Under the pieces are notes generated by a model. It did no database searches. It saw only the letters and a list, made by a program, of their open reading frames with translations, and was not told the origin of the DNA. Made by a program: the position numbers and the translations under genes. A DNA stretch of 64,000 nucleotides. Origin: Desulfobacterales bacterium (GTDB lineage: Bacteria; Desulfobacterota; Desulfobacteria; Desulfobacterales; JADGBH01). This document shows positions 3,701-41,632 of this stretch, piece by piece; positions within the stretch are counted from its first letter, which is position 1, and each line of letters opens with the position of its first letter. The stretch is taken from contig JADGBH010000001.1 in NCBI GenBank assembly GCA_015231595.1, positions 78,900 to 142,899 of the forward strand, written 5' to 3'.

Positions 3701-3705
3701 AAAAA

Positions 3706-4548: not shown

Positions 4549-4556
4549 TAAATAAA

Positions 4557-5303: not shown

Positions 5304-5305
5304 AA

Positions 5306-6160: not shown

Positions 6161-6375
6161 AATTTTATTCCTTTTTTTTAATTATGCTGTAAACATAATT
6201 GCAATTTAGTTGCATATATAAAAAAAAAGTTATTATGTCAACTATAGTTAAATTGTAACGCTATACAAATATAAATAATTATGCAAATTCTTTGCGTTTA
6301 GTTTCAAGGATTTTGTGTTGAGATATAAAAAAAATTTAACTTAATAACCACCTAACATTATTCTCTCTACAAAAA

Positions 6376-9400: not shown

Positions 9401-10785
9401 ACAGACAGTTTTATTGATGCTACTTCTCTACCTACATTAGTCACCTTAATTTCGCAAGTCCCTGCTGTTCCATTAGTAGTTGTCGCAGTTATTTTAGTTA
9501 TACTTTCAACATTCGGAGGAGTAAAATTTATTGTTGCTTTTCCATCAGTACACAAAACAGTTGACGATGATAAAGTACCTGATCCTTCGATAATTTTAAA
9601 TGTCAATGTTTCATTTGTACATGGATTACCCAATGAATCTGTTACAAGAGCATTAATTGTAACATTTGCTCCACCTAATGTAACCTGTTTTGAAGAAGGA
9701 GATAACACTACAGTTGATGCGCCACCAGGAATAAAATTAATTGGCTCATCTACTACATCTGTAACGCCTCCGGCAGTTGCCTGAACAGAAGCTACACCAA
9801 CATGAACTGTACTTACTAAAAATACAGTTGCAATTCCTTTTGAGGTATATGCAGTTTTTATCAACTGAATACCTTCCATATCTTCATCCAAATCACCAGC
9901 TGTAGTTGTAAAAGTAACTGGCGTTCCATCACCAACTGGTTTATCAAATTCATCATTTACATATGCATTTACCTGCACCTTTGATTTCCCATCAGCTATA
10001 ACAGAAACAGAAGAAGCTTCAACCCTAACTTTTCCAATTAAAGCTTGAATTAACATTACTTCAACTGTTGAAGTAATTCCATTAACAGACTTAGCTTTAA
10101 TAATATCTTTTCCTGAAATTGCCGAAACTGTGTATTCAACTGAAGCAATACCTATTGCAGTCAACTGTGCGGGAAGACTCAACTGACCTTTTCCAGAGAC
10201 TATTTCAAATGCAATATTTTCTCCGTCAGCCACAGCATTCCCATACTCATCCTTTACTTCAGCTCTGATTACAGCTTTGCTTGTTCCATCAGCCGTAAGA
10301 TTATTAGGAGATGCACTCAAAATAATCGATTTTATCGAACCTGGAACAAAAGCGACTGAAGTTATACTGTTTATACCGCTAACAGTCGCTGTAACATTAG
10401 CAGTTCCAACTAAAGTTGGGCTTGTTAAATAAGCAGTTGCTACACCATCTTTAGTTTTAGATGTATATGATGTTTGAACCCCATCTAAGCTAGCATCTAA
10501 ATCGCCAGCTGTAGTTACGAATACAACTTGAGTTCCATCTGAAGCATTATTACCGTCTGTGCATTTAACTGTAGCAGATAGTAAAGATTGAGATACTCCA
10601 TTTGCTACAATAGCTGCAGAACCAGATTCCAATGAAACTTGGGAAATAGGGCTTACAACGACAACTACAGGCTCCGGCGGAGTTCCTTCATTCAACTGCC
10701 CTTCCGCGCCACATCCAATAAAAGCGCAGGCTAAAAATAATGCTAAAGATACTTTATACAGCAATAATAATTTTTTATATTTCAT
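6439..10785 (-). CDS. Giant surface lipoprotein with about a dozen bacterial Ig-like (Big_1/invasin-type) repeats and a Cys-rich, Ca-binding-like C-terminal domain
   Basis: The leader MKYKKLLLLYKVSLALFLACAFIGC has a lipobox. There are repeated units of about 90-100 aa of the type ..ADGxSxxxxxAxVxDxxGNPVxDGTxVxFxTTxGxL... The C-terminus holds DKNKNGILDAGEDINGNGVLD and several Cys pairs. The start was moved from TTG 10800 to ATG 10785, which has GGAGGAG 6 nt upstream. Confidence 0.8.
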   Translation of the reverse strand: MKYKKLLLLYKVSLALFLACAFIGCGAEGQLNEGTPPEPVVVVVSPISQVSLESGSAAIVANGVSQSLLSATVKCTDGNNASDGTQVVFVTTAGDLDASLDGVQTSYTSKTKDGVATAYLTSPTLVGTANVTATVSGINSITSVAFVPGSIKSIILSASPNNLTADGTSKAVIRAEVKDEYGNAVADGENIAFEIVSGKGQLSLPAQLTAIGIASVEYTVSAISGKDIIKAKSVNGITSTVEVMLIQALIGKVRVEASSVSVIADGKSKVQVNAYVNDEFDKPVGDGTPVTFTTTAGDLDEDMEGIQLIKTAYTSKGIATVFLVSTVHVGVASVQATAGGVTDVVDEPINFIPGGASTVVLSPSSKQVTLGGANVTINALVTDSLGNPCTNETLTFKIIEGSGTLSSSTVLCTDGKATINFTPPNVESITKITATTTNGTAGTCEIKVTNVGREVASIKLSVAQSKIKADEKSSTTITVTMLDSSGKAVPKGTSASVTTSLGKFSNGSTIIAVATPDESGKVDVSLHAGKDPGVAQITVSSNGITNVASVVFECTRPVAASLTLTVSSAKIKSDGVSSTVITATIMDSAGVPVVAGTPINFSTTLGTFRNGYDSVYIGTPDDTGKITVSLIAGKIPGIAKITAVVDSITNMVSVEFEGGALTPDVIELKPADYILPADGLSTMEIIATAKTSNNQAVQGVQVSFKSSHGSIIAKNNGVTDANGQVIAVITSERLLVPKVEITAECQGAIGKVYIAFTGIELNLTANPSSLYSGGTSNITGVLKDAAGKVISNANVSLEVRKEDITDNKGRVIFNLINPLKDFKFKVESSDGTPITNGYLIYYKSINPDVIGESVPLDANGGAIFTDNVIGSVTLELAEDTAGTKPISNKILSYGSTTSTVTTDSLGQFTYSVSSNSGKLSVRASGNGATAKIFVYFTKYKLSLTANPEIIKVNTGSATITATLLEDGVAKSNESISFSTTLGTITESAVTDNNGSATATLKSGFQSGIAVVNAMVTVDGMTLTASVQVSFVGELAHKIVLSVNPSIVATKGVAEVKANVYDSTDQPVANQKVFFKIEKGAPGGGEYLENSAVTTDNFGVAIVKFIAGTLPTTLIERLTVVASVSSDFKDKFFVQITIAGPPANIGVGTNLEKVTADGAHLVMDVSAVVTDINGNPVVDGTPVYFSVSSIAFDEYRTIVADDVNRPAIKSWTVNASNQIIDEERNGAVGITSSTQPCEPDPLNPAICLNATTETENSCKQNDSFAILNPGEWRDKDNNLINVEVRVCGGIGGCWNRYYGSARGNVKPSNLGYTKGNPFFRKSKNDLGITWFTTDVNLDGVYPVTYGSDCMVIGMIQFTESEDKNKNGILDAGEDINGNGVLDPVNGAVIANKIETGNGIAKTQMSYLQTLGQNIKVRITAEAGGVKSFYDATLLCTKAMCEAGTCGQEY

Positions 10786-10849
10786 AAAAAGCTCCTCCAA
10801 TTTTTTAAACTTCCTCTCTTTTTCTCCCGTTTTTATTAAATTGCTCTAG

Positions 10850-13126
10850 TTACGATAAAGACTTCTGCTTTAGTTTTACAATTTTAGGTGTTAAAAATAT
10901 TAACAATTCTTCCTTTTCATTAGATTTTGTTTGAGATTTAAAAAGCCACCCAATAAAAGGAATTTTCGATAAATATGGCAAGCCTGCCTTGTTATTATCT
11001 TGCTTAGTTTTTAAAATTCCACCTATAACTATCGTATCTCCATTGTTTATAAGTAATTCTGTTTTAGCCTCTTTCGTAAGAAATGTAGGGAAATTACCAT
11101 AAGAAGGACCAATATCATTTTTACTTACGTCTAATGTCATCATAATTCTATCGTCGGGAGTTACTTTAGGTTTGACCTTTAATTTTAAATCAATGTTTTT
11201 TGTCAAAGATTTAGGGTCGCCTCCACCATCAACATAATTTAATATCATTTCAACGCCCTGCTTAATTTCTGCTTCTTTATTATCTAATGTCATTATCTTT
11301 GGAGAAGATACTATACGTCCCTCACCTTCAGATTCCATCGCCATTAATTTTGCGTTTAATAAAAATGGAGTCCCAGCTATACGGGTAAAGTTAATACCTA
11401 AATTTGCGTTATCAGCAATAGGATAATTTAATGCCATATTATATCCATAGGTTCCACCTAAATTGTGAAAACCTCTCTCCGGGCCACTTCCAGCTCTTGC
11501 ATCATCTCCTTGAATGCCTCCAGCCGCTTCCCATGTAACCCCTAAGCCTTTTGAAAAATTTGTATTTGCTTCAACAATCCTTGCTTCAATTATAACTTGA
11601 GGAGTAACCTTATCTATTTCTTCGATTATGCGTTTAGCTTCTTTTACTTTCGCAACAGTATCAATCATAATAATCTGGCTCGTTCGTTCATCAACGCCTA
11701 CTGAACCCCTCTCTTTTGTTAAAATCTTTTCAATATGAGGCAAAACTTCTTTTTTAGCATCCGAGTAACTCACTGAAATAAATTCTGTAACTAAAGGCTC
11801 TAAAGCTTTTTCTTGTTCTTGAGCTTTTTTCATTGCATCTAAACTATCTATCTTTAATTTTTCTTCAGCTTTTAAAGTTTCCAAAGTTGCAATTCTAATA
11901 ACATCACCATCTTCAGATTTACCAAGCTGATTCATTTTCAAAACAAGTTCAAAAATTTGATCCCATGGAACTGGCTTATCAAAAGTAAGAGACACCTTGC
12001 CTGATACATTATTATCAATAGCAAAATTTTTACCGCTAACATCTTTCAAAATTCTAAAAACATTCTTTATATCAGTTTCATAAAAATCTAAGGCTATCTT
12101 TTGTCCTGTGTATTTTTGCTTTGGAGCATCGTATCTGTCAAGTTCTGAAGTTTTAGATATAGGCGTTAATTCAACATTAGTTGTATTAAGCTCTGTAGAA
12201 GAGGCCATTGATTTTTGTTCTGTATTTGAGTCCGACTTAGAAAAATTATCTGCTAAGCTTGGAGCTTTAAGCGATGCATTTGTGGAAGAACCTGGAGAAT
12301 CAAAATTTATAAGCAAAATATTACCCATCTGCTCAATTCGATAAGAAACTAATTCTTTCATATCAAATTCTATAATAGAATCGTCATCATTATCAGGAGC
12401 TTTCATTGGGTCTATTTTGTTTATTGCGGAATCAAACCTCCCTGTTTCCAATGTTTTCTGCCTATAACCTGGAATCTGAGTTTTAAATAATCTCAGTTGA
12501 ACTTTGTTTCCAGCAGCAGTGCGAATATCATATTTTACTGGAATTGTAGTACCAACTGTTATTAAAGACTTACCCGCTTGCTCACGAGTAAAATCAACTC
12601 TATTCACCCATGCACTTTTTATCATGTCTGGTTTAATTTCTTTAATTTCCGAAGATTTTTTTTCTTCAACTACCACTACATCTTTTGATTCGGATGTTTT
12701 ATCAATAGCAACTTTTAATGTATTTCCTTCGCGTATAACATCATAAGAAGCATTATGTGATAAAATAATCTCAATTTTTGTTTTATTCCCTTCTAACGAA
12801 GTTTTTATTCCTTTGATAACATCAGTTTTAGGATTTATTTCTCCTGTTTTTAGTGTTTTTGTATCAGGAAAATAAAAAATAATCCCCGGAGGAGATACCA
12901 TCTTAAATGAAGTATACCTCAATTCTCCTGTTCCAATAATGGATACAACCGCTTTTTCGCTATCAGCTATTTCCACAATATCACTTATTGATAGCTCTGC
13001 ATCCTTACTTATTTGTCGGGCATCAGGTGCTTTTTTTATTTTTGCACACCCCCCAATTAGTAAAATTGTTACTAAAACTAACCAAAATCGCCATAAAAAA
13101 TTTGATAAAAAAGTTTTTGAATTCAT
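10850..13126 (-). CDS. pilQ: Type IV pilus secretin
   Basis: N-terminal AMIN-like regions, a secretin N-domain (ALDFYETDIKNVFRILKDVSGKNF) and a secretin core ending GLPYLSKIPFIGWLFKS..EELLIFLTPKIV. The start was set to ATG 13126, one nt after the pilP stop. Confidence 0.92.
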   Translation of the reverse strand: MNSKTFLSNFLWRFWLVLVTILLIGGCAKIKKAPDARQISKDAELSISDIVEIADSEKAVVSIIGTGELRYTSFKMVSPPGIIFYFPDTKTLKTGEINPKTDVIKGIKTSLEGNKTKIEIILSHNASYDVIREGNTLKVAIDKTSESKDVVVVEEKKSSEIKEIKPDMIKSAWVNRVDFTREQAGKSLITVGTTIPVKYDIRTAAGNKVQLRLFKTQIPGYRQKTLETGRFDSAINKIDPMKAPDNDDDSIIEFDMKELVSYRIEQMGNILLINFDSPGSSTNASLKAPSLADNFSKSDSNTEQKSMASSTELNTTNVELTPISKTSELDRYDAPKQKYTGQKIALDFYETDIKNVFRILKDVSGKNFAIDNNVSGKVSLTFDKPVPWDQIFELVLKMNQLGKSEDGDVIRIATLETLKAEEKLKIDSLDAMKKAQEQEKALEPLVTEFISVSYSDAKKEVLPHIEKILTKERGSVGVDERTSQIIMIDTVAKVKEAKRIIEEIDKVTPQVIIEARIVEANTNFSKGLGVTWEAAGGIQGDDARAGSGPERGFHNLGGTYGYNMALNYPIADNANLGINFTRIAGTPFLLNAKLMAMESEGEGRIVSSPKIMTLDNKEAEIKQGVEMILNYVDGGGDPKSLTKNIDLKLKVKPKVTPDDRIMMTLDVSKNDIGPSYGNFPTFLTKEAKTELLINNGDTIVIGGILKTKQDNNKAGLPYLSKIPFIGWLFKSQTKSNEKEELLIFLTPKIVKLKQKSLS

Positions 13127-13127
13127 A

Positions 13128-13694
13128 CTATAATTCCCCAGCAGGTTTTTGAAGTTTAAGTTCCCTTTTGACATGGGTTAGCTCACCTGTTATTTCGTTT
13201 ATATCCTCTTCCTCGACTATAATACGATCGTCCTTTATTTCTACAACCTTACCACATTGGCTTCCAATTCTAGTATTCACGCCAATAATGAAACCTTTAC
13301 CATTGGCCTGTTCCACAAGAGCTTTATTTCCAGAAGGACCTGCAATAACTCCAGTCAATTTTAACTGAGATAAGCTAACTAATTCAAGAGGACCGCTTGG
13401 ATTACATTTTTCACGTTCTGGTAGCTTGTTAGGTCGATCAGGAGGTGGTTGGTGAATTGGCGTAGCAAATGGATCAATTCTTCCGGCAGGGTTATAGCGA
13501 TCAGAAAGATCGTTTACTCCTATTTCATCTTTTTGTGCAACCAAAAAGGTTTTATCAGAAAAAGTTTTTTCAGATACACTAATAGGATAAATTTTATCTT
13601 CTGCGCATAAACCTATTCTTGATTCCAATATTACTAATCCTAACACACCAATAATAGTACACAAAAAAATCTTTTTTTTAATTTCATTAATCAT
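13128..13694 (-). CDS. pilP: Type IV pilus assembly protein PilP
   Basis: Position between pilO and pilQ, an N-terminal anchor, and a C-terminal PilP-type beta domain (LKLTGVIAGPSGNKALVE..GKVVEIKDDRIIVEE). Confidence 0.8.
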   Translation of the reverse strand: MINEIKKKIFLCTIIGVLGLVILESRIGLCAEDKIYPISVSEKTFSDKTFLVAQKDEIGVNDLSDRYNPAGRIDPFATPIHQPPPDRPNKLPEREKCNPSGPLELVSLSQLKLTGVIAGPSGNKALVEQANGKGFIIGVNTRIGSQCGKVVEIKDDRIIVEEEDINEITGELTHVKRELKLQKPAGEL

Positions 13695-13716
13695 ATTTAG
13701 TTACTATTTTCCTTTC

Positions 13717-14337
13717 TTATCTTTTTTTCTTATCTTTTTTTTCAGGCATATTTTCAACAAATTTATATGTTACAGCAGTGCATTCCATAGTTAATTTATT
13801 ATCTGCCTTAGCCTGTTTATTATTATATACTTTAATATCATTTATGTTTACTATTCGGTTTAAACGTGAAACATTATCAAAAAAAATAGTGACATTATGA
13901 TAAGAACCACTAACCGCAATCGCTACTGGAATTTCTGCATAAAACTCCTTTGGAACTTCTGGTTTTGGGTTAAATAGGGAAAAATCTAAACCAGCATCTT
14001 GTCCAGAACGAGTAATGCCTGTTAATAATTCAGGAATATCCTGCTGGTCAGGAAGCTTACTTTTAGCCTCTTTAAATTGTAATTCTTTTGATGCCTTCTC
14101 TTCTCTAAGTCCTTGAAGTTTTGCTGCTTTTGCCGTAACTAAAGATAATTCCTGTTTCGATTTTTCATATTCCGATGTCAATCTCGTAATTTTTTCTGAA
14201 ATAGGAGCGTAGAATAAATAGAAAAAACCCACCACAATAGCCACCATCGTTATACAAAATATCGCGATCCGATTTCCTTTTGAAAGAGCTCCAACCTTCT
14301 CCACTATTTGCTCAAAATCTAAACTCCCTTGACTCAT
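13717..14337 (-). CDS. pilO: Type IV pilus assembly protein PilO
   Basis: Single TM, a coiled coil, then a ferredoxin-like C-terminal domain. Operon position between pilN and pilP. Confidence 0.75.
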   Translation of the reverse strand: MSQGSLDFEQIVEKVGALSKGNRIAIFCITMVAIVVGFFYLFYAPISEKITRLTSEYEKSKQELSLVTAKAAKLQGLREEKASKELQFKEAKSKLPDQQDIPELLTGITRSGQDAGLDFSLFNPKPEVPKEFYAEIPVAIAVSGSYHNVTIFFDNVSRLNRIVNINDIKVYNNKQAKADNKLTMECTAVTYKFVENMPEKKDKKKR

Positions 14338-14414
14338 AACTCTCCTCTATTGCTTAATTTTTCTATATTCACTTCCTGCAATCTATCAATTATGTTCCTT
14401 AAGTAATATTTAAT

Positions 14415-14960
14415 TTAATTAATTTTTACGCACGCTACCTTAAATTTTTTAATAGATTCAACCTCAGGAAGCTTTTCATTTACAAGACTCTTTAAATCTA
14501 CTCCAACAAATATCTTTGTTTGCTCAAGCCGTTTCATAAAATCTGCGACTGTTTTATTGTCCATTGCATATCCATCAATGGTTACATTTTTTCCTTTTAG
14601 TTCTAAATTAGTAAACCACATTCTTTTTGCAATTACAGTTTCAGTCATTAGAGCAAAAAGTTTTACGGGTTCTTTTCGATTTCTCTCTAATGTATCAATT
14701 ACTTCTAACTTTTTATTTAATGCTTTTAAAAATTCTTCAATTTCTCCAGCTTCCTTCGCTTCTCTTTTCTTTGCTTCTAACTGGACAGTAACATTTTGCT
14801 TCTTCATTTCAAGTTCAGATACTTGATTAGCCAAATAATAATAGACGCCACTCATTAAACAGCAAACTAAAATAATTGACAAAACGAATATAGATATTTG
14901 CCTTCTTATATTTTCTTTTTTTCGGGTTTGTCTAAAAGGTAAAAGATTAATTCTTATCAT
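14415..14960 (-). CDS. pilN: Type IV pilus assembly protein PilN
   Basis: Conserved N-terminus MIRINLLPFRQ (INLLP motif), then a TM and a coiled coil. The ATG at 14960 overlaps the pilM TGA (ATGA). The track start at 14996 was rejected. Confidence 0.8.
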   Translation of the reverse strand: MIRINLLPFRQTRKKENIRRQISIFVLSIILVCCLMSGVYYYLANQVSELEMKKQNVTVQLEAKKREAKEAGEIEEFLKALNKKLEVIDTLERNRKEPVKLFALMTETVIAKRMWFTNLELKGKNVTIDGYAMDNKTVADFMKRLEQTKIFVGVDLKSLVNEKLPEVESIKKFKVACVKIN

Positions 14961-16021
14961 TTGTCGTCCACTCTTCTTGTTGCTAAACCAAGACAAATTG
15001 CAGCTTGAGATGCCACTCTTCTTATGCCAGCACCATCTAAGCGCCCTTCATCTATTGCAATTTTTTGAAAAGGATTTATAAGCTTAACTTCTGTTCCTGT
15101 TTGATCTTTCAAAAGGTCTCTAAACTCTTTAATATTCCCTCCCCCGCCACTTAAAACAACTTCTTTTATTCTATGCTCTGGATAGCTCGAGTAATAAAAT
15201 TCTAATGCTCTCCTTATCTCAGTACACCAGTCTGAAACTACGTCCGTAACGATTTCCTTCACTCTATTTCCAACCAACTTACCTTTCTGCCTACCCAGCT
15301 TTATAGCTTCCGCTTCATCAAAAGAACACTTCGCTTCAGACATTATTCTTTCATCAATTTGAGAACAGCCTAATGGAACATCTCTCATAAATACAGAATT
15401 CTTATTCCAAAGAATATTTAGTGATGTTTTACTAGCTCCAATATCAATCAATGCAATATGTTCATTTTTACCGTCAACAGTATCATAATTATGCTCATAA
15501 ACATTTTGAAGCGCAAACGCATCAACATCAACTATCATTGGAGTTAATCCTGCTTTTTCAACTACTTTTATATAAGTGCTAACAATTTCTTTTTTTGCTG
15601 CAACCAAAAGAACTTTCATTTGTCCTTGAGCTTGTCCAGCCTCACTTACTATTTGGAAATCAAGATTAACGTCGCTCATGTCAAATGGAATATATTGTTC
15701 CGCTTCTATATGAATAGTATTATGGAGTTGTTCTTCTGTCATTGTCTGAACGGTAATAGTTTTAACAATAACTGAATAACCACCAATTGCGACAGCAACA
15801 TTGGATATCTTTATCCCTGTGTTTTTAAATAACTGCCGAATACTATTTGCAACAACTTCTACATTTTTTATTCCGCTTTCGTCAATCGCTCCATGTGGTA
15901 CATCAAGCGTTCCAAATTTCTTTAGGATAAATCCTTTCGAAGTTTCTGAAGCTTCTGCTACTTTTATTATCCTTGAGCCAATATCTAATCCCGCTATTTG
16001 ATTTTTTTTACCAAGAATCAT
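14957..16021 (-). CDS. pilM: Type IV pilus assembly ATPase-fold protein PilM
   Basis: Actin/FtsA-like fold motifs (GLDIGSRIIKV, LIDIGASKTSL, VVLSGGGGNI). First gene of the pilMNOPQ order. Confidence 0.9.
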   Translation of the reverse strand: MILGKKNQIAGLDIGSRIIKVAEASETSKGFILKKFGTLDVPHGAIDESGIKNVEVVANSIRQLFKNTGIKISNVAVAIGGYSVIVKTITVQTMTEEQLHNTIHIEAEQYIPFDMSDVNLDFQIVSEAGQAQGQMKVLLVAAKKEIVSTYIKVVEKAGLTPMIVDVDAFALQNVYEHNYDTVDGKNEHIALIDIGASKTSLNILWNKNSVFMRDVPLGCSQIDERIMSEAKCSFDEAEAIKLGRQKGKLVGNRVKEIVTDVVSDWCTEIRRALEFYYSSYPEHRIKEVVLSGGGGNIKEFRDLLKDQTGTEVKLINPFQKIAIDEGRLDGAGIRRVASQAAICLGLATRRVDDK

Positions 16022-19640: not shown

Positions 19641-21005
19641 ATGACTATTGCTAAGTCCGAAAAAATAAAACCATTTAGACTTGTAAATTATTTTAGCTTT
19701 ACAAGCCTTTTTGTAATATTAATCGGAGGAATAGTTCTTTCTACATTAAATTCAAGATTTGCAAGGACAATTCTTCTCCAAAAAACCGAAGAGTATGGAT
19801 TACTTTTAATCGAAAGCTTAAATTACCAAATTTTTACTCAACTTATTACTCCTAATACGTTAAATGATCGTTTTGATTTGGCAAATGAATCCCAATTCAA
19901 CAAAATGGATAGAATCGTAAAAACTACCTTACACAGTTTTAAAGTTGATATGCTTAATATATATAATGTTAATGAAACCATTTCATATAGTTCGGAAAAA
20001 AAAACCATCGGTAAAAGATATAGCGGAGGGTTTGGATATAAAAGAGCAGTATTAGGAAATCATATATCTTTTATGGTTCAAAGCGGAAGTTTTTGGGAAC
20101 TCGTCATGGGTTTTCCAAAAGAAAGTAAAATAATTACTTTTGCACCCATTAGAGTTGAAAATCATTTATCAGAATCATCCTCAAATAATGTGGTTATTGG
20201 AGTTGTTGAAATTATGAGGGATCTATCCGACGAATATCAAACTGTTTTTAAATTACAAATTAGAGTTATCGAAACATGTGCTATTGTGATGGGACTTCTC
20301 TTTATAGCTCTTCGTTATCTTGTAGAAAGAGGCGAAAGAATTATACAAAAAAAAACATACGAAAAAGTTGATTTCATTGAAAACGAAGTAAATGCACGAT
20401 ACGCTTACTATATAAGCAATGTTAGAATTGGATTATATAATGATGTATCTCAAGTTTTAGATAAAATAGCTGAATCATCTGAACTTTTAAAATCAAGGAT
20501 AGCTATTTTAGATGTTTCAAACACAATTCCCAATGATATATACGATTATTCAAAAAAATTAAAATCGAATTTTCAAGATATTTTATACTTTTATAATAAC
20601 TTAATTCCTAAATTAGAAGTATGCTGCATAAATGATGTAATTGAAAAAAGCATTAATAACATTTTATCTGATAATATAAGTATCAATACGCAATATGATC
20701 AAAAGCCTCATTATATAATGGGAGATTTTGATATGCTCGTTTATGCTTTTCAAAAACTGATTATTACTTCTAAAAATTCTAAGGTTAGCTGTGAAAATAT
20801 TACAATACGAACTCTACTTTATGATAATATCGTCACCATCATGATTGAAGACAATGGATCTTCAATTAATGAGTACAATTTAAGTCTTGACGTAAAAATA
20901 GCGGAAAATATATTTATAAGTCATAAGGGAAAAATTTTCATAGAAGATAGAATAGTAGAGGGAAAACTCACAACAATAGAATTTCCCCTCTTTTGCGAAC
21001 GATAA
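19641..21005 (+). CDS. Membrane sensor histidine-kinase-like protein, apparently degenerate (pseudokinase)
   Basis: N-terminal TM, a second TM, then a DHp-like helix YYISNVRIGLYNDV in place of an xxSHELRTPL H-box (no His). The C-terminal HATPase-like segment MIEDNGSSI..HKGKIFIED..GKLTTIEFPL has weak N/G boxes. Confidence 0.5.
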   Translation: MTIAKSEKIKPFRLVNYFSFTSLFVILIGGIVLSTLNSRFARTILLQKTEEYGLLLIESLNYQIFTQLITPNTLNDRFDLANESQFNKMDRIVKTTLHSFKVDMLNIYNVNETISYSSEKKTIGKRYSGGFGYKRAVLGNHISFMVQSGSFWELVMGFPKESKIITFAPIRVENHLSESSSNNVVIGVVEIMRDLSDEYQTVFKLQIRVIETCAIVMGLLFIALRYLVERGERIIQKKTYEKVDFIENEVNARYAYYISNVRIGLYNDVSQVLDKIAESSELLKSRIAILDVSNTIPNDIYDYSKKLKSNFQDILYFYNNLIPKLEVCCINDVIEKSINNILSDNISINTQYDQKPHYIMGDFDMLVYAFQKLIITSKNSKVSCENITIRTLLYDNIVTIMIEDNGSSINEYNLSLDVKIAENIFISHKGKIFIEDRIVEGKLTTIEFPLFCER

Positions 21006-23708: not shown

Positions 23709-24575
23709 CTAATATTTCAAAGCATTTAATAAATACTGGCCATAACCGCTTGACATAAGACCTTTAGCGAGTTTTTCAAGTTGAGAAGCATTAATATAGC
23801 CTTTTCTATAAGCTATTTCCTCAATGCACGCTACTTTAAGACCCTGTCTTTGTTCGATTGTGGCAATAAAATTTGCAGCCTGCATTAAGCTTTCATGGGT
23901 TCCTGTATCAAGCCACGCTATACCTCTTCCAAGTTTTTGAACATATAACTTTCCCATAGAAAGATAAGCCTTATTTACATCTGTTATTTCATATTCTCCA
24001 CGAGCTGAAGGCTTTAAGTTTGCAGCTATATCAATCACTTGATTGTCATAAAAATAAAGTCCAGTTAATGCCCAATTAGATTTAGGATTTTTAGGCTTTT
24101 CTTCAAGCTCATTAGCTATACCCTTTTCATTAAAGGACACTACTCCATATCTTTCAGGATCCTTTACCCAATAGGCGTAAACTATCGCTCCGTCCTTAAT
24201 GCTTGTTGAGTTAACAATCTTATCAGGCAATCCATGCCCATAAAATATATTATCTCCAAGTATAAGACAAACGCTATCTTTACCAATAAAATTTCGTCCA
24301 ATAGTGAATGCTTGAGCCAGCCCTTCTGGCTTTGGTTGAGGCTCATAATAAATAGAAAGCCCCCATTCTGAGCCATCCCCTAATAAATTTTTGTAAAGAG
24401 GCAAATCAACAGGAGTTGAAATTATAAGAATTTCCCTTATTCCGGCGAGCATTAACACTGAAAGAGGGTAATATATCATTGGTTTGTCATAAACAGGAAG
24501 AAGCTGTTTACTTACAACTCTTGTTATTGGATATAACCTTGTCCCTGAGCCTCCAGCAAGAATAATTCCTTTCAT
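23709..24575 (-). CDS. rfbA: Glucose-1-phosphate thymidylyltransferase
   Basis: Near-canonical RmlA N-terminus [55 protein letters not shown], and the C-terminal [15 protein letters not shown]. Confidence 0.93.
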
Positions 24576-24701
24576 TTTCTACTATTCCTTAAATTATTAT
24601 GGGGTTATCAATATCTTCTAAATTTCTAATAAAAACGTTCAATTTAATTTTTTAAAAGCTTATATGTTTTTTCAAATTCAATTGCAACTAACTCAATTCA
24701 C

Positions 24702-25829
24702 CTAATCGCCCATCAATAATATCCTCCAGGGTTGGTCAATAAATTGGCGCTGCGTTGTAAGGGTATATTCGTGCGAGCCTGTACATCCGTTTCGGTCTGT
24801 GGCGGTGACTGAGAACGTAAACGAACCGATCGCAGTCGGTGTGCTTGATATAACGCCTGTTTCGGTATTGAACAACAACCCAGTGGGCAGCAACCCGATG
24901 ATGCTGAATGTATACGGTGCTCTTCCCCCACTAGCATCGATGTCCTGGTTATAGACAACTCCCACTGTTCCTTGCGGAAGCTGCTGCGGCGTAAGCGTAA
25001 TGAGCGGACAGGGAAAGGTTACAGCGTCGGAATCGAGCGTAACCTGGGTTTGCGCCAGCGCTCTGCCGTTCAATACTGCGCCGGTTCGCAAGATAATCTG
25101 CTTTGCACTCAATATAGTTCCATTGAAGGTGGAGTACGTTCCGAGAGTTGCACCGCTAACACCTCCGACCTGCCAAAAGATATTCGAGGCTAGGGCTCCA
25201 CCGGTTAGTACTACCTTAATACCGGTAGCGACGCTGCCAGATGATGCGATATCAAGATTTCCAGCTATTTGGAATATCCAAACATCGTTTGCACCGCCCG
25301 AGAGAGTAACGTTTGTGTTTATTAAAACGTCGTTGCTCCATTTGTAGAGTCCAGGGGCTATTGTCAGTCCGCTGATATCTCCAGCACCCAGTCCGATGAC
25401 AGGAGCAGGGCTTACTATCCCAGCAGCGCTATTGTATGCAGTTAGCATATCGCCTACCGCGGTATCCACTAAGGTCTTGTTAGCAAGAGGCGGATTACCG
25501 GCAAAACATGTTATAGTGCCATTACCTGTATATGCTGCATCAACACCGTAGATGGTTCCAGTGATTTGCGAACACCATATTCCATCCATCTGCGCAGCAG
25601 AGCCAGGACTATTGCCAATATCCCCAGTGATAGCAGAAGTATGGCTTCCGGTCTCTGTGATCCCTGTTTCTGCCAGAATCACGAAATTACCTGCTGACAA
25701 AAGATCGACTGGGTCAGGGCCGGCCGCGAGCGCTGTAATTGCCCCAATGAAACCGAGCGCAACAAGCCCCACGCTAAGCAAAAGACTCCATCTTGTCCTC
25801 CGGTTAAAGATTTTTTTTATTTTAAACAT
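24702..25829 (-). CDS. Secreted DUF3494 (ice-binding-like) beta-solenoid protein with a C-terminal Ig-like (He_PIG-type) domain. The gene is compositionally foreign.
   Basis: Signal peptide (RRTRWSLLLSVGLVALGFIGAITALAAG). DUF3494 hallmarks: LLSAGNFVILAETGIT..ITGDIGNSPG, ..TAYNSAAG.., LTIAPGLYKWSN, DVWIFQIAGNLDIAS, NIFWQVGG, FNGTILSAKQIILRTGAVLNGRALAQTQVTLD. The tail reads GGRAPYTFSIIGLLPTGLLFNTETGVISSTPTAIGSFTFSVTATD. GGGAGAA RBS upstream of the second ATG (25829). Confidence 0.85.
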   Translation of the reverse strand: MFKIKKIFNRRTRWSLLLSVGLVALGFIGAITALAAGPDPVDLLSAGNFVILAETGITETGSHTSAITGDIGNSPGSAAQMDGIWCSQITGTIYGVDAAYTGNGTITCFAGNPPLANKTLVDTAVGDMLTAYNSAAGIVSPAPVIGLGAGDISGLTIAPGLYKWSNDVLINTNVTLSGGANDVWIFQIAGNLDIASSGSVATGIKVVLTGGALASNIFWQVGGVSGATLGTYSTFNGTILSAKQIILRTGAVLNGRALAQTQVTLDSDAVTFPCPLITLTPQQLPQGTVGVVYNQDIDASGGRAPYTFSIIGLLPTGLLFNTETGVISSTPTAIGSFTFSVTATDRNGCTGSHEYTLTTQRQFIDQPWRILLMGD

Positions 25830-26047
25830 TTTTGATTCTCCCATTAATTTTTCTTCGAATTGTTGAAAATTCCTAATACTGCAGCATCATAATTATCTAT
25901 TTATTCAATAATTCATTCCTTTGCAATAATTTTAGTTGAAAGCCGCTATTTATTGATATTTAGATCGATATATCAGTAGAATCAATGCTCTTAAAATAAC
26001 ATTTTGATTTAATCAAAAAAATGGGATTTCCTATACTATTAAATTTG

Positions 26048-26081
26048 TTTTAATATATTCTTAAAAAAGAATATATTAAAA
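26048..26081. repeat. Perfect AT-rich palindrome (15-bp arms, 4-nt spacer) sharing 13-bp arms with the palindrome at 40882-40913
   Basis: TTTTAATATATTCTT-AAAA-AAGAATATATTAAAA read directly. It lies between the GT2 stop (26163) and the DUF3494 start (25829). Confidence 0.8.
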
Positions 26082-26162
26082 ACAATAAAATACGACTAAG
26101 GCCAAAAATAATAAAGACTCAAATTTTTAGTATTTTTATATATCTCATTTTTAGAATATACT

Positions 26163-27035
26163 CTACTTCTCATTTGCATTTAAAAATTTCAAAGAAAGCA
26201 CAAACAATCCTCTAATGAAAAGAAAAAAAAGAACAATTGGATTTAACATAAAAAGCCATGATGGAGAATATTTATTAAAATAGTAATAAACACTTTTATG
26301 AAACTCATAGTTTGCTTTAATTTTATCTTTTTTGCTGCTCATACCAACATAATGATAGACTATAGGTTTTGGATAATAAACGACCCTCCACCCCATTTTT
26401 TTTAGCCTTTTACATAAATCAGCATCTTCCCAATACATAAAAAAGCCTTCATCAAATCCTCCTGTCTGTTCAAAAACGTCTCTTCTTAAAATCATGCAAG
26501 CTCCTGAAACCCAATCAACGTTCATTGGAGAATATTCATCTAAAGTAAGAAGGCTCATCAAATTTTTTTTTGTGATTTTATTATTAGGAAAAATCTTTGA
26601 CAAATACGAGGCTCGGCCAAAAAACGATGTAAGAAGATTTGGGAATGATCTTGCAGAATTTTGCAATTTCCCATCAATATCGAGAATTTTAGGACCCATG
26701 GCCCCTATATCAGGATTTTCAATCATAAAATCTAACACATCTTTTAAAAAAGATGGAGATACGATTGTATCAGGATTCAAAATCATTATAAATTTGCTTA
26801 CACCAATATTAGCAGACTTATTAACAGCTTTTCCAAATCCCAAATTTTTATTGTTGTAAGAAACAAACGATTCTGGAAAAACCTTTTTTATAATTTCAGG
26901 ATTATCTTTAGATGCGTTATCTTCAATGTATAAATCATATGGTATTTCATTTAAAATTGAAGATTTTTTCAAAGACCTAATACAATTCAAAAGAAATTTT
27001 GTAGAATTATAATTAACTATGATTATATCAATCAT
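26163..27035 (-). CDS. Family 2 glycosyltransferase
   Basis: N-terminus MIDIIIVNYNSTKFLLNCIRSL, EDNASKD, a DxD-like NPDT, and YWEDADLCKR (typical of rhamnosyltransferase-like GT2). Confidence 0.85.
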   Translation of the reverse strand: MIDIIIVNYNSTKFLLNCIRSLKKSSILNEIPYDLYIEDNASKDNPEIIKKVFPESFVSYNNKNLGFGKAVNKSANIGVSKFIMILNPDTIVSPSFLKDVLDFMIENPDIGAMGPKILDIDGKLQNSARSFPNLLTSFFGRASYLSKIFPNNKITKKNLMSLLTLDEYSPMNVDWVSGACMILRRDVFEQTGGFDEGFFMYWEDADLCKRLKKMGWRVVYYPKPIVYHYVGMSSKKDKIKANYEFHKSVYYYFNKYSPSWLFMLNPIVLFFLFIRGLFVLSLKFLNANEK

Positions 27036-28122: not shown

Positions 28123-31100
28123 CTATGCTTTCTTCACAATTCCTTCCGCTATTTTTTCTGCTGAATTACCAAATAATTCGTCCATTTGAATAAATTCAAT
28201 CAAATCATCTTTCCATTGAATGTTTTCTTGAACTAGACTTTTTATTCTTTCATATTTTCCACCGAGAGCCTTTATTTTAAAACTTAAAGAAACATTAATT
28301 TTAAACTCTATTTCAACAAGAAGTAAATATTCTATTACGTTAGGAGTATCAGGAGACGCTGAAATAATAGGTATAACAATCATTTTCCTGCCATCTCGCC
28401 TGCCTTTACCTATATAAACATTTCCTTCTCTTACAATTATTTTTTTAGTTCCTTTTAAAGTCTTATCTTTTTCAACTCTTGATACTAAGCCTTTAGATGA
28501 GCCTCTTTTATCTATAACTTCTATGGATGCATCGTCTGTTGGTTCTCCAAGAAGATTCAATCCTGAAATTTTATATAATGTTGACCCTTTTATTTCGGAT
28601 ATAATTGTTTGGATATTTTTAAGCACAATTACATTTTTATTAATAAGCTGAGATGTGCTAAAATTATAATCGGTTAATACGTCAAAAAGTATCCCTTCCA
28701 TTTTTTCGACAATTCGGCTCGTTCCTACTGTTACAGTTTTTGCTTGATGTTTTATGGCATCGATAGGCCTTGCCATATATGTAACAGCTTCACCAACACA
28801 GTCAAAAAGCTTATTAAGCATATTTAAAGGAGTTCCTTTTACGCCAAAATCAAGCTCAAAATCAGATACAGGAAGCCTTCCATAAAGGTACTTTAACAAA
28901 AGTGTAAGATCTGAAGCATCATATTTTCCCCAAAAAGCCGGGAAATGATTATTAGTTTTTTTATCCCTAAAAACACGATAAAATCTCAAAATTGTTTCTT
29001 TAAACGATTTTTCAAGTATACTTTCAAAAATATCAAGGCCTTCTTTTGTAAATTTATCAATGGTTAATTTAAGCTCATTTCTAAATCTATAAAATAATTC
29101 AGAATTTTGATTAATTGCAAGCGCCGCATAATATCCCCATAAATGACCTACCAGTGTATTTAAAATTGAAGAAAGGTGTTCTTTAACGACTGGAATTTTA
29201 AATACAGCTGCGGCATATTTATCAAATCTGTCCTCATCCTCATTTGTAATTACGATGGGAACCGCCTTATGAGCCTGAAAAATTGCAGTATCTTTAATTA
29301 AATCGTAAGTTACTCCTTCGCGCGCGCCAGCAGCACATATAATTATTAAAGGCTCTGCAGAAAGATCTATATGCTTTTTATCTTCAATGTAGTCAGATGA
29401 AATTGTTTTATAACATAATTCACTTAATTTTATTCTTATTTCATCGGAGGAGGCTTTATTTGGCCCACTTCCAGCAGCAGCCCAATAAGTTCTTGTTAAG
29501 GCATATTTTTTAGCAGATTCCTCTATTTCTTCGCTCATATTAAGGATTTTTCGCATGTGGCATGGAATTTTAATAAGTTCAGCCATTTCTGACGTAATAA
29601 AATCATCATTTCTAGTACCCGTTATTTGAGCAATATAAAGACCTAATATAGTTCCAGCAATAATTTGAGAATAAAAAGCCTTTGTTGAAGCGACTGACAT
29701 TTCAATATCTCTTCCGCTGCTTGTATAAATAACTCCATGAACTTTAAATGTAATATCTGATTCTCTTCGATTTACTATAGCAAGAGTGTAAGCACCATTT
29801 GTATTCGCCATATCAATTGTTTTATTAGTATCTGTAGTTGTTCCTGATTGAGTTATAGCTATTACAAGATTATCTTGCATACTTTTAATTTCTGAATCTT
29901 TTGACTCGCTTATTTTACCGCTTAACTCTGAAGCTTTTAAAGCAGATATATTTATACCAGAACCTGCCATATAATAATTTAAAATATCCGAACAAACAAG
30001 AGCCGCAACTCCTGCTGTTCCTTGGCCAATAAAATAAACATTTTTAATTTTTTTCTCTGTAAGGGCTGCAACTAAAGGTTTAGGAAAATTTTTCTCATTA
30101 AGTTTTATTTCAATTTTGCCTGTATCGAGTTTTGTTTTCCATCGGTTAAAAAGAGTTTTTTCTACAGAAGATGGGCTTTCAGATATTTCTTTAAAAAAAT
30201 AATGGGAAAAAGTTTGTCTATCTATATCCCTTGAAGTAATTTCAGATTTTTTTATATCCTTTATTTCCATGTTAAAAGGCGTTCCATCATACCACATGGA
30301 TTTTACGCTGCCTTCTTGAGCAAAAGGCTTTTCATCCAATATCACTATTTGGCCTTGAATACTGCCATTTTGCCCTTCAAAAAGTTTTTCTCCTTCTAAT
30401 TTAAAAAAATAGGGAGTTTCTTCGACAAATCCATAAACTTCAGATGTAGGAATATAATGGTCATCAGCTACACCAACGAAAATAGCTTGTCCGCTGCCTC
30501 TTTGGGCTAAAAAAAGTTTACCGGGCGCAATATCTGTTTGCATAAAAATAGCGTGGGAACCTTTAAAAGCATTAACAGCCATTCTAAAAGACTCTTCTAT
30601 TGAATTTCCTTGATTTAAATATTTTTCTATTTGAAGAGGGATAATCTTTGTATCAGTAGTGATTTCAGAATCTATCCTGATTCCTTCCTCTTCTAACGAA
30701 GCTTTTAAGTCTTGATAATTATCGATATCCCCATTTAAAGATACATGGATAATATTGCTGTGAAGAGATGCTCCTTTATTGAAATCATTATCCATAGGAT
30801 GGCAATTTTCTTCAGAAATATTTCCAACCGATGCCCACCTTGTATGGGCGGCAATATTATAATGAAGATTATTACAATTTATAATAATATTAAATATTTC
30901 ATCATTTTTAATTTGATTTCTAAGAAAAGAAATATTATCGCCAAGCTTTCCTACTTCAGCTGAAACCTTATAAGTAAATGAAATGCATTTTAAAGATTCT
31001 GTTTCTTTAATTAAATTACTTAGGGATATGCTTCCATTAAGTAGAATATTATAATTCATTCGTTTATCAAAAACATCTATTAAACCCTTTTCTGTAATAA

Positions 31101-31875
31101 TATTTTGAAATTTTTCAAATTCAGCTTCTTTAATCCAAAAAAATATTGAAATGCCTGCGGAATCTCTACCTCTAACTTCAAGACGATCAATGCTATTTAA
31201 AACAGAATTAAGTCTTTTCAATATTTTTAATGACAATGGAGACACAAATTCCTTTGCGTCAAAATATAAATCATTTATTCTTTTGATATTTTCGTATAAC
31301 TCTTTTGAAAGAGCCCATTGAATATCTTTTAATAATTCAATTTTTTGATTTATTTTATTAACACTCACAGTGTTTAAAATTCCACTATTGATCGAAAGAA
31401 AGGCTTCACAACTTTGAATTGCGTTAAAAAGCATTGCCGAAACGTTTATAATTTCGTCTGATAATTCTTTATTAGGAAATATTTTTATAAAAGAATATTC
31501 TTTTTTTAATGAAAGGATAAATTCAAATAAGGTATCAAGTAAAGAGTTATCTCCTAAAAAATGATCCGAAAGATTAAAATTATCTTTAATAAATTCGTCT
31601 AATATAAGGTTTTCGCTCTGTTCATAGAGTTTACGAGCCGTCTGAATTAAAAAATTTATATCGATGGATTCATCGTGTTTTGTAGCCTGATGTTTTACGG
31701 CAATTATTCCGGCAAGACCGCAATAAAAAATATTATTGCATACAGGGAAAAAAATTATAGATTTCTCAGATACAGACTTTATATTTTTTCCTATAAAAAT
31801 TTGATAATTAAAAAATGATAATTTGTCAAAACTCCTTCGTAGAAAACTAAACATGCTATTTTTTTTTGTTTTCAT
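28123..31875 (-). CDS. Giant GlmS-like glutamine amidotransferase (class II) / tandem-SIS sugar-phosphate isomerase family protein, 1250 aa
   Basis: GATase-II motifs: CGLAGIIAV (Cys at residue 52), RLEVRGRDSAGISI, AHTRWASVG, NGDIDNY. SIS motifs: GQGTAGVAALV, VIAITQSGTTTDT. The GlmS isomerase-site equivalents EDKKH and HQAKTVTVG are present. It is about twice the length of the canonical GlmS, which is about 610 aa. Confidence 0.75.
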   Translation of the reverse strand: MKTKKNSMFSFLRRSFDKLSFFNYQIFIGKNIKSVSEKSIIFFPVCNNIFYCGLAGIIAVKHQATKHDESIDINFLIQTARKLYEQSENLILDEFIKDNFNLSDHFLGDNSLLDTLFEFILSLKKEYSFIKIFPNKELSDEIINVSAMLFNAIQSCEAFLSINSGILNTVSVNKINQKIELLKDIQWALSKELYENIKRINDLYFDAKEFVSPLSLKILKRLNSVLNSIDRLEVRGRDSAGISIFFWIKEAEFEKFQNIITEKGLIDVFDKRMNYNILLNGSISLSNLIKETESLKCISFTYKVSAEVGKLGDNISFLRNQIKNDEIFNIIINCNNLHYNIAAHTRWASVGNISEENCHPMDNDFNKGASLHSNIIHVSLNGDIDNYQDLKASLEEEGIRIDSEITTDTKIIPLQIEKYLNQGNSIEESFRMAVNAFKGSHAIFMQTDIAPGKLFLAQRGSGQAIFVGVADDHYIPTSEVYGFVEETPYFFKLEGEKLFEGQNGSIQGQIVILDEKPFAQEGSVKSMWYDGTPFNMEIKDIKKSEITSRDIDRQTFSHYFFKEISESPSSVEKTLFNRWKTKLDTGKIEIKLNEKNFPKPLVAALTEKKIKNVYFIGQGTAGVAALVCSDILNYYMAGSGINISALKASELSGKISESKDSEIKSMQDNLVIAITQSGTTTDTNKTIDMANTNGAYTLAIVNRRESDITFKVHGVIYTSSGRDIEMSVASTKAFYSQIIAGTILGLYIAQITGTRNDDFITSEMAELIKIPCHMRKILNMSEEIEESAKKYALTRTYWAAAGSGPNKASSDEIRIKLSELCYKTISSDYIEDKKHIDLSAEPLIIICAAGAREGVTYDLIKDTAIFQAHKAVPIVITNEDEDRFDKYAAAVFKIPVVKEHLSSILNTLVGHLWGYYAALAINQNSELFYRFRNELKLTIDKFTKEGLDIFESILEKSFKETILRFYRVFRDKKTNNHFPAFWGKYDASDLTLLLKYLYGRLPVSDFELDFGVKGTPLNMLNKLFDCVGEAVTYMARPIDAIKHQAKTVTVGTSRIVEKMEGILFDVLTDYNFSTSQLINKNVIVLKNIQTIISEIKGSTLYKISGLNLLGEPTDDASIEVIDKRGSSKGLVSRVEKDKTLKGTKKIIVREGNVYIGKGRRDGRKMIVIPIISASPDTPNVIEYLLLVEIEFKINVSLSFKIKALGGKYERIKSLVQENIQWKDDLIEFIQMDELFGNSAEKIAEGIVKKA

Positions 31876-40953: not shown

Positions 40954-41622
40954 ATGTTTATAACACTTGAAGGGATAGAAGGTTCAGGAAAGACTACGCA
41001 AGTTAAAAATATACTTGAATTTATGTCTATGAAAGGCATAGAAGCGATAAGAACTCAGGAACCTGGAGGAACAAACATTGGAGGAAAAATTAGAACTCTT
41101 CTCCTTGACCCTGAGAATAAAGATATACATCCAATGACTGAGTTATTATTGTATTTTGCTGATAGAACCCAGCATTACACAGAATTTATTAAGCCTTTGC
41201 TTCAAAAAGGAAAAGCAGTTGTTTGTGACAGATTCTTTGAATCTACGCTCGCATATCAGGGGTATGCAAGGGGTATGGATATAGACTTGATTAAATATTT
41301 ACATAAAATTATATTTGGAGGCATAAAGCCAGACATTACATTACTTTTTGATCTTCCAGCTGAAATAGGTTTAACAAGAGCATTAAATGACATCAAAGCT
41401 GGGAATAGACCAAAAAATGAAGCTCGTTTTGAAAAAGAGAATATTTTATTCCACGAAAAAGTTAGAAATGGTTATCTCGAAATATCAAGGCTTGAGCCAG
41501 ATAGAATTAAAGTAATTAACGCTTTATTAGATAAAAATAAGGTAAAAGACGAAATTTTTAATGTATTATCTTTAAAATTAGATACTAACAATGACGGCAC
41601 TAAAAAGAAAAAAAATAATTAG
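40954..41622 (+). CDS. tmk: Thymidylate kinase
   Basis: MFITLEGIEGSGKTTQ P-loop, a DRF.ST.AYQG motif and a LID region. Confidence 0.93.
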   Translation: MFITLEGIEGSGKTTQVKNILEFMSMKGIEAIRTQEPGGTNIGGKIRTLLLDPENKDIHPMTELLLYFADRTQHYTEFIKPLLQKGKAVVCDRFFESTLAYQGYARGMDIDLIKYLHKIIFGGIKPDITLLFDLPAEIGLTRALNDIKAGNRPKNEARFEKENILFHEKVRNGYLEISRLEPDRIKVINALLDKNKVKDEIFNVLSLKLDTNNDGTKKKKNN

Positions 41623-41632
41623 GACAAAAAAA

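Follow-up and report, generated by a model that had tools for sequence, protein, structure and literature searches.

A GC-rich single-gene segment encoding a secreted DUF3494 protein, probably acquired from within the order, in an AT-rich Desulfobacterales genome

A 64,000-nucleotide stretch of contig JADGBH010000001.1 from an AT-rich Desulfobacterales bacterium (hereafter the window) contains a single gene that differs sharply in base composition from all others there. The gene encodes a secreted member of the DUF3494, or ice-binding protein (IBP), family, and is one intact open reading frame (ORF) at 24702-25829 on the minus strand with its ATG at 25829. The 375-aa product is a 100% match to NCBI MBF0223898.1 (P0001), from a "Desulfobacterales bacterium" metagenome-assembled genome (MAG) on a 176-kb contig. 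A longer ORF with an in-frame ATG at 25844 was rejected, because a strong Shine-Dalgarno sequence (SD) serves the ATG at 25829, and NCBI annotates this start too. The original prediction took the gene for a horizontal acquisition, which is now strongly supported by its codon usage, by a copy with 87% nucleotide identity in a foreign genome of matching composition, and by a signature of amelioration. The features of the locus are listed in Table 1.

Table 1 Features of the DUF3494 gene and its immediate surroundings; residue numbers are those of the 375-aa product
Feature	Position	Strand	Basis or remark
RfbA-like glucose-1-phosphate thymidylyltransferase, co-oriented, downstream	23709..24575	-	PF00483 E 6.5e-72; GC3 0.242, host-like
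AT-rich host-type spacer, insert to rfbA	24576..24690	.	
Putative foreign segment, ~1183 bp: ~45 nt of 5' untranslated region (UTR), coding sequence and 11 nt after the stop	24691..25873	-	Extent of nucleotide homology to L001
Coding sequence, secreted DUF3494/He_PIG protein, 375 aa	24702..25829	-	Stop TAG 24702-24704; ORF list, P0001 match, Pfam, AlphaFold2 (AF2) model
16-residue C-terminal tail (LTTQRQFIDQPWRILLMGD region)	24705..24752	-	Replaces extra He_PIG repeats and IPTL-CTERM of long forms; pLDDT (predicted local distance difference test score) 55-68
Single He_PIG (cadherin-like Ig) domain, residues 278-359	24753..24998	-	PF05345 E 1.5e-12
DUF3494/IBP-1 beta-solenoid with long bracing alpha-helix, residues 36-272	25014..25724	-	PF11999; Foldseek
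Sec-type signal peptide, residues 1-35 (MFKIKKIFNRRTRW-LLLSVGLVALGFIGAITALA then AGP)	25725..25829	-	Predicted helix 5-28; conserved leader
SD GGAG, 8 nt upstream of ATG	25838..25841	-	Sequence; conserved in L001 and L165 (alignments)
AT-rich host-type spacer, GC ~0.21, GT2 to insert	25874..26162	.	Composition like other window intergenic regions
AT-only hairpin, 26-nt arms, 85% complementary, 4-nt loop (inverted repeat I1)	26037-26092		In spacer between GT2 and insert
GT2 glycosyltransferase, host gene, co-oriented, upstream	26163..27035	-	Pfam; GC3 0.234, host-like

At 24702-25829 the G+C content (GC) reaches 0.498, while the window averages 0.316 (standard deviation (sd) of size-matched sliding windows, 0.033). 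This is the maximum in the 64 kb, and the step is abrupt at both gene ends on 200-nt and 30-nt scales. At 0.0586, the tetranucleotide distance from the window average is also the highest in the window, where the mean is 0.0249 (sd 0.0064). Thus, the single-gene G+C-rich island described earlier is borne out as the strongest compositional outlier in 64 kb with sharp steps on both sides, and the hand counts behind it (35/60, 20/60 and 8/60 G+C) were all exact on recount. The overlapping shadow ORFs that it mentioned are likewise there, four of them in the ORF list. The 64 kb holds no second DUF3494 copy and no other gene of like GC-richness, so the many native G+C-rich genes that could have undone the prediction are absent from the window ORFs.

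By codon position, GC in the gene is.511/.511/.473 (GC1/2/3), compared with.418/.319/.206 (sd.051/.040/.027) in the 44 other window ORFs, among which the highest GC3 is.256. When the same amino-acid sequence was re-encoded 2000 times at host codon frequencies, the GC was.405±.007 and the GC3.213±.019, with a maximum GC3 of.269 in all draws. The observed GC3 lies more than 13 sd over this expectation, so that the synonymous codon usage deviates beyond any amino-acid effect, and the gene's composition reflects foreign codon usage and only partly a Gly/Ala/Thr-rich protein. About half of the GC excess is due to amino-acid content and about half to foreign synonymous codon choice, as seen in Ile ATC (.42 in the gene vs.08 in the host), Thr ACC (.30 vs.08) and Pro CCG (.38 vs.07).

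This result bears on whether the gene could be native, owing its GC-richness to a Gly/Ala/Thr/Pro-rich solenoid or to expression selection with no transfer at all. The GC2 of.511, and an amino-acid composition that alone lifts the expected GC to.405, are what a native gene would have going for it. However, neither accounts for the GC3, and a native Gly/Thr-rich control in the same window, a 1453-aa Big_1/invasin adhesin gene, has a GC2 of.447 yet keeps a GC3 of.175. Together with the existence of an 87%-nucleotide copy in a ~49% GC genome, this makes a native origin scarcely credible. The control gene (6439-10800, minus strand; Invasin_D3/Big_1 repeats) is located directly downstream of the type IV pilus secretin operon pilMNOPQ (10850-16021).

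The closest relative is P0005 on contig L001, with 81% amino-acid identity over the full length and 86.7% nucleotide identity. L001 has a GC of 48.5% outside this sister gene, whose GC3 of.54 is in line with the.51-.56 of its neighbours, and a neighbouring protein matches a Desulfamplus sp. protein at 89% and Desulfobacteraceae proteins at 74-82%. Copies on three other contigs, L002, L165 and L166, are ~80% identical in nucleotide sequence and all reside on ~50% GC contigs, L165 coming from a Desulfosalsimonadaceae MAG. Because a Usp gene is found upstream of the IBP gene in both L002 and L165, these two look like resident loci. Thus, the search for a donor lineage proposed earlier leads to other lineages of matching composition, that is, ~50% GC genomes of the Desulfobacteraceae and Desulfosalsimonadaceae types. 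On the host side, the best named homologs of the flanking GT2 gene are from Desulfonema limicola, Desulfococcus, Desulfobacteraceae and Desulfosalsimonadaceae, in agreement with the Desulfobacterales label of the MAG. Since none exceeds 56% identity, the host lineage is isolated. Scans found nothing closer to the window protein than 59% in GTDB representatives and 68% in JGI metagenomes.

Two observations were made in passing on these contigs. L001 carries a second DUF3494 gene of unrelated architecture (3441-6209; 922 aa, Big_5 repeats and Ice_binding) 2 kb downstream of the sister copy, indicating that the donor-type genome has several IBP paralogs. In L002, the P0008 gene reaches the contig edge (10740-10777) and ends in ...EIGRASCRERV, which we take to be translated sequencing adapter, so that this C-terminus is probably artefactual.

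Beyond these relatives, members of the family turn up, widely scattered, in Patescibacteria, Gammaproteobacteria, archaea, Ca. Cryosericum and the psychrophiles Shewanella frigidimarina, Psychromonas and Colwellia. Such scatter fits the literature view of frequent transfer, in which DUF3494 genes have moved horizontally again and again and are found together with accessory domains of the Ig-like and PEP-CTERM kinds (PMC9957290, PMC6892780, PMC7783341, PMC11912409). In the present case, the gene most likely passed between members of the order Desulfobacterales, its donor lineage having ~50% GC and its recipient ~32%.

The limits of the segment were read from its homology to the donor-type loci. 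By blastn, window positions 25873..24691 align with 41..1229 of L001 at 86.7% identity over 1198 columns. The upstream end of homology is found at 25873 against L165, 25872 against L002 and 25873 against L001. In the 40 nt inside this junction, the window is identical to L001 at 37/40 positions; the 40 nt outside match L001 at 25/40 and L165 at 20/40, a background level for AT-rich DNA. Over the same outside interval L001 and L165 still share 32/40 positions with each other, and this stretch includes a promoter-like AAATATATA...TGTAATCTAT block. At the other end, identity with L001 covers the stop codon and 11 nt beyond it, after which similarity is lost. The native promoter was probably not carried in with the segment; expression would then rely on the host spacer or on transcription reading through from the upstream GT2 genes.

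The AT-rich start of the gene had suggested a different course, in which the DUF3494 body alone was foreign and had recombined in-frame with a leader already resident in the host. It is true that the ribosome-binding site and the initial ~8 codons are AT-rich and host-like, and that the GC-rich block begins only at ~25805. But the same AT-rich codons, the SD and ~45 nt upstream are near-identical in L001 and L165, both with ~50% GC backgrounds, and are present in L002 also. Furthermore, the signal peptide, MFKIKKIFNRR...LLLSVGLVALGF...ALAAGP, is conserved along its whole length across P0004-P0009 and P0013, and the homology to the donor-type loci continues unbroken through the ATG. The leader is AT-rich because it encodes the Lys, Ile, Phe and Asn of a signal-peptide n-region at the translation start. 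Since the leader and UTR are common to relatives with ~50% GC, they came with the gene, and a fusion behind a resident leader can practically be dismissed.

If the gene was acquired, its stay in the AT-rich genome should have left a mark. Substitutions between the window copy and its sister on L001 were polarised with L002, L165 and L166 as outgroups, counting only sites with the same base in every outgroup. On the window branch, 25 changes are GC-to-AT and 8 AT-to-GC, whereas on the sister branch there are 9 and 12, respectively (Fisher p=0.021; binomial p=0.0046 for 25/33). This excess suggests that the gene has replicated in an AT-biased genome. The GC3 has moved from ~.54, as in the sister, to.473, toward the ~.21 of the host, so that ~20% of the gap would have been closed since arrival. 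With a dS of 0.24 to the sister copy, the acquisition earlier called recent is recent in evolutionary terms, but it is not brand new.

Throughout this period the gene appears to have been maintained under moderate purifying selection, as judged from the two copies. Their dN/dS is 0.43, all eight indel codons are in frame, and the polarised nonsynonymous to synonymous counts are 25:17 on the window branch vs 19:10 on the sister branch, a difference that is not significant.

The polarised substitutions also help in judging whether the segment might be an assembly or binning artefact, a fragment from a ~50% GC co-occurring organism spliced into the contig of an AT-rich MAG. The source being a metagenome assembly, and ~50% GC Desulfobacteraceae carrying a near-identical leader and UTR, are grounds for suspicion. 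However, two precise mis-joins 1.18 kb apart would be required, the second returning to the same co-oriented string of host genes, and the borders share no repeat. No database sequence is closer than 87% at the nucleotide level, so the supposed contaminant is itself unmatched. Finally, a contaminating fragment would not show the 25:8 excess of GC-to-AT changes, which is missing in the sister. An artefact is therefore very improbable.

The segment lies among host genes with no sign of a vehicle. No mobile-element hallmark (terminal inverted repeats, target duplication, integrase or transposase) was found around the insert, only short AT-rich repeats at chance level, and there is no tRNA in the 64-kb window. 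Because of this absence, entry was probably by illegitimate recombination of a short incoming fragment. The upstream spacer contains promoter-like hexamers on the minus strand and lacks homology to the flanks of donor-type loci; its AT-only hairpin may be the terminator of the GT2 operon in an AT-rich genome. In the downstream spacer, neither a terminator-like site nor an attC-like structure was found, and its RNA folds no better than shuffled sequences (z = 0.11).

As for the wider setting, two GT2 genes upstream and RfbA and PfkB downstream agree with the placement inside a glycan locus given in the original prediction. The larger region does not, being housekeeping core chromosome with a metallophosphoesterase, a giant GlmS-like protein, PBP, MetRS, DNA Pol III delta', LptD, Tmk, CysRS, chemotaxis genes, PriA, ArgRS, PilMNOPQ, Mla and Znu.

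The encoded protein was described earlier as a signal peptide followed by a DUF3494 beta-solenoid and an Ig-like domain, and all three parts were recovered. In the hidden Markov model (HMM) search, PF11999 Ice_binding covers residues 51-271 (E 1.3e-55, 188.7 bits vs a cutoff of 28.7) over the full length of the model (1-208), and PF05345 He_PIG scores 48.2 bits vs a cutoff of 24. Export would be by Sec, and cleavage would follow Ala35 in an A-x-A site, as suggested by the A-L-A motif and by solved homolog chains that start at the aligned AGP. Tat export was rejected, as the RR pair in the n-region is unconserved among homologs; the context of this pair in the window protein does not fit the Tat consensus either.

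An AF2 model was built from a 51-sequence alignment with a mean pLDDT of 88.3. It has the bracing helix at residues 115-137, and a Foldseek search with it retrieves 30 IBP structures at E<1e-9. The match to FfIBP (4nu2) has a template modelling (TM) score of 0.95, an rmsd (root-mean-square deviation) of 1.7 A and 46% identity, and that to ColAFP (3wp9) a TM score of 0.93, an rmsd of 1.6 A and 46% identity. Among solved structures, sequence identity is highest with the IBPs of Candidatus Cryosericum odellii (9lhs, 9lhn, 9li0), at 51-53% over residues 36-271, with 53% for 9lhs. The capping-head cysteines of 3wp9 and 4nu2 have their aligned counterparts in C86 and C108, which are at least 90% conserved in the 51 homologs, so the protein would have the capping-head disulfide and belong to the FfIBP/ColAFP subgroup. 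In FfIBP and ColAFP, this disulfide lends stability to the ice-binding site (PMC10853241). Judged by HMM, fold and capping cysteines, the window protein is a bona fide DUF3494/IBP-1 member. Its He_PIG domain, a beta-sandwich, finds structural matches in SraP cadherin-like modules, in dystroglycan and in cadherins, and repeats of the He_PIG type are carried by over 50,000 proteins, the majority of them giant adhesins.

The C-terminus divides the clade into two forms. A single He_PIG domain with a short ...QPW..LL..D tail is found in the window protein, in its sister P0005 and in the 59%-identical P0013 (L003), a Gammaproteobacteria MAG protein. The long forms P0002, P0003, P0004, P0006, P0009 and P0012 have 2-3 He_PIG domains and end in IPTLSEWGMII...YYLRRR. 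With the IPTL-CTERM model TIGR04174, P0003 scores 30.6 bits (cutoff 20.5) and P0002 a borderline 20.3, whereas the window protein is unmatched and thus not in the IPTL-CTERM-sorted set. On L166, a long-form homolog with IPTL-CTERM (8336-11704) lies ~520 nt downstream of an Exosortase_EpsH gene and a small ORF, which suggests that EpsH and this homolog form a dedicated sorting pair for the IBP clade.

Past its signal peptide, the window protein has neither a transmembrane segment nor a sorting signal, and nothing else that could be recognised as an anchor. It would therefore probably be released or only loosely associated with the cell. An adaptive surface role, as the original prediction suggested, is not supported; the cell-anchoring signal of the relatives is missing from this copy. 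That the tail might be a degenerate IPTL-CTERM is speculative, because its DNA similarity to the L166 anchor region is not significant (33% of shuffles were as good or better) and the likeness at the protein level is weak. In an exhaustive search with He_PIG plus tail, giant multi-repeat adhesins dominated the result and none of the matches included the tail residues, so that it carried no information on the tail. One may speculate, with little confidence, that the tail (...F-I-D-Q-P-W-R-I-L-L-M-G-D) is an undescribed C-terminal signal, for instance for release, processing or partner docking, that would turn an anchored protein into a shed one, giving the host a diffusible modifier of ice or matrix.

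Putting these results together, we propose the following. In ~50% GC Desulfobacteraceae/Desulfosalsimonadaceae, a clade of DUF3494 and He_PIG surface proteins would be the source. A ~1.18-kb piece with one complete gene would have inserted between GT2 and rfbA, co-oriented with both, bringing its own SD, AT-rich start region and Sec signal peptide. Since arrival, the gene would have drifted toward AT with its frame kept. After Sec export and cleavage, the mature protein would consist of a solenoid with capping head, one cadherin-like Ig domain and a short tail. We consider this account as a whole, a resident foreign one-gene segment for a secreted IBP-1 and He_PIG protein, highly likely.

Several points count against it. 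The upstream junction is based on 40-nt comparisons, L001 has only 40 nt beyond it, and the upstream region of L002 is without clear homology to L001 or L165. The taxon of L001 was assigned through one neighbouring gene, and the numbers of polarised substitutions are small. An empty-site search in three contigs with GT2 homologs (the Desulfonema limicola genome and two ENA contigs) gave identities of at most 56% without synteny. No vector was found: relatives on plasmids are at most 37% identical, phages match in Ig domains only, and viral contigs gave none. A double mis-join would be excluded only indirectly, by the arguments above.

For the function, we conceived that the flat solenoid face could bind ice crystals and thereby inhibit recrystallisation or shape ice locally, to which, going by sequence and model, we give an even chance or slightly better. 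The solenoid's 46-53% identity to three crystallised ice-binding or antifreeze proteins, the capping-head cysteines aligned with those of FfIBP and ColAFP and the many psychrophile genes in the family speak for this. Alternatively, with the same origin, the protein could serve as an adhesin or matrix protein, secreted or only loosely held at the cell, that in anoxic sediment binds another ordered surface or polymer such as a mineral, polysaccharide or extracellular polymeric substance (EPS), or another cell. This is a serious contender to which we assign somewhat less than an even chance.

The cadherin-like domain and the place beside glycosyltransferase genes fit a non-ice activity, although a neighbourhood acquired by random insertion says little on function. 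Such an activity is also in line with the He_PIG repeats, which are typical of giant adhesins, and with the relatives sorted to the surface by exosortase/IPTL-CTERM, a system linked to EPS-producing bacteria (PMC9957290). PF11999 also holds substrate-binding proteins from non-icy habitats (PMC12337378). Distant members of DUF3494 (at most 37% identity) occur on 122 plasmids, and because these are mostly from mesophilic plant- or soil-associated genera, many members of the family appear to have non-ice roles. The NCBIfam model NF045625 IBP_CFB gives 201.1 bits, below its equivalog cutoff of 400, so the protein is not an IBP equivalog of the Bacteroidota type. Moreover, ice-binding faces are poorly conserved in the DUF3494 family, and sequence cannot decide ice binding. 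The plasmid genera include Cronobacter, Ensifer, Streptomyces, Curtobacterium and Rhizobium; one example is L167 (Curtobacterium flaccumfaciens pCfp2-type) at 3884-5137.

Comparison with known systems places the protein more precisely. Like FfIBP from Flavobacterium frigoris PS1 and ColAFP from Colwellia sp. SLW05, it has a signal peptide, the IBP-1 fold, the aligned AGP as its presumed mature N-terminus, and the capping cysteines. These two are single-domain proteins of sea-ice psychrophiles with measured antifreeze activity, whereas the window protein adds He_PIG and the tail and belongs to an uncultured AT-rich Desulfobacterales host. The Cryosericum IBPs, in spite of their higher identity, lack the capping-head cysteines, the ~14-residue insertions of the window protein and the Ig domain. 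SfIBP_1 from Shewanella frigidimarina (6bg8) similarly joins a signal peptide and DUF3494 to beta-sandwich domains. It has tandem Big domains and is a proposed ice adhesin, with Ig-type domains as a tether (PMC9957290, PMC11645318). However, it is only 28% identical, has another domain order and carries Big instead of He_PIG. An ice adhesin of the SfIBP_1/MpIBP type requires a cell anchor, and the window protein has one Ig-like domain and no recognisable anchor. The long forms P0002, P0003, P0004 and P0006, at 68-74% identity, share the leader, solenoid and first He_PIG domain, but unlike the window protein they add further He_PIG repeats and IPTL-CTERM, and one of them adjoins the EpsH exosortase gene.

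As a transfer, the case resembles documented ones of DUF3494 from bacteria to algae, fungi, rotifers and cyanobacteria, in which a single gene stands in an unrelated background (PMC6892780, PMC7783341, PMC11912409, PMC9957290). It differs from them in being from bacterium to bacterium within one order, with both junctions located to within a few nucleotides and with measurable amelioration. It is thus a clean but ordinary case in a family already known to spread by horizontal transfer. Its value is that of a teaching or benchmark example of one-gene transfer, combining sharply placed junctions, a donor-type sister copy and an early amelioration signal, and it illustrates that a foreign gene can have an AT-rich 5' end that did not come from the host. 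The reach of DUF3494 transfer is extended to anaerobic sulfate-reducing Desulfobacterales, and a switch from anchored to unanchored architecture is documented within one clade. If the protein does bind ice, freeze-related selection would act in sediment anaerobes; if not, the case for many DUF3494 proteins being general surface binders would be strengthened. Current views would stand either way.

Other genes in the window deserve brief mention. Two ORFs of host-like composition on the plus strand, 19641-21005 (454 aa) and 43916-44911 (331 aa), have no Pfam match at E<=1e-5. The GlmS-like ORF of 1250 aa (28123-31875, minus strand) has a core of GATase_6 (residues 342-475) and SIS (611-744), flanked by ~340 N-terminal and ~500 C-terminal residues without a Pfam match. 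A 770-aa ORF on the plus strand (41591-43903) combines a cysteine-synthase-like PALP domain (residues 20-298) with a CysRS catalytic domain (330-627) and DALR_2, and looks like a fusion of a CysK-like enzyme and cysteinyl-tRNA synthetase.

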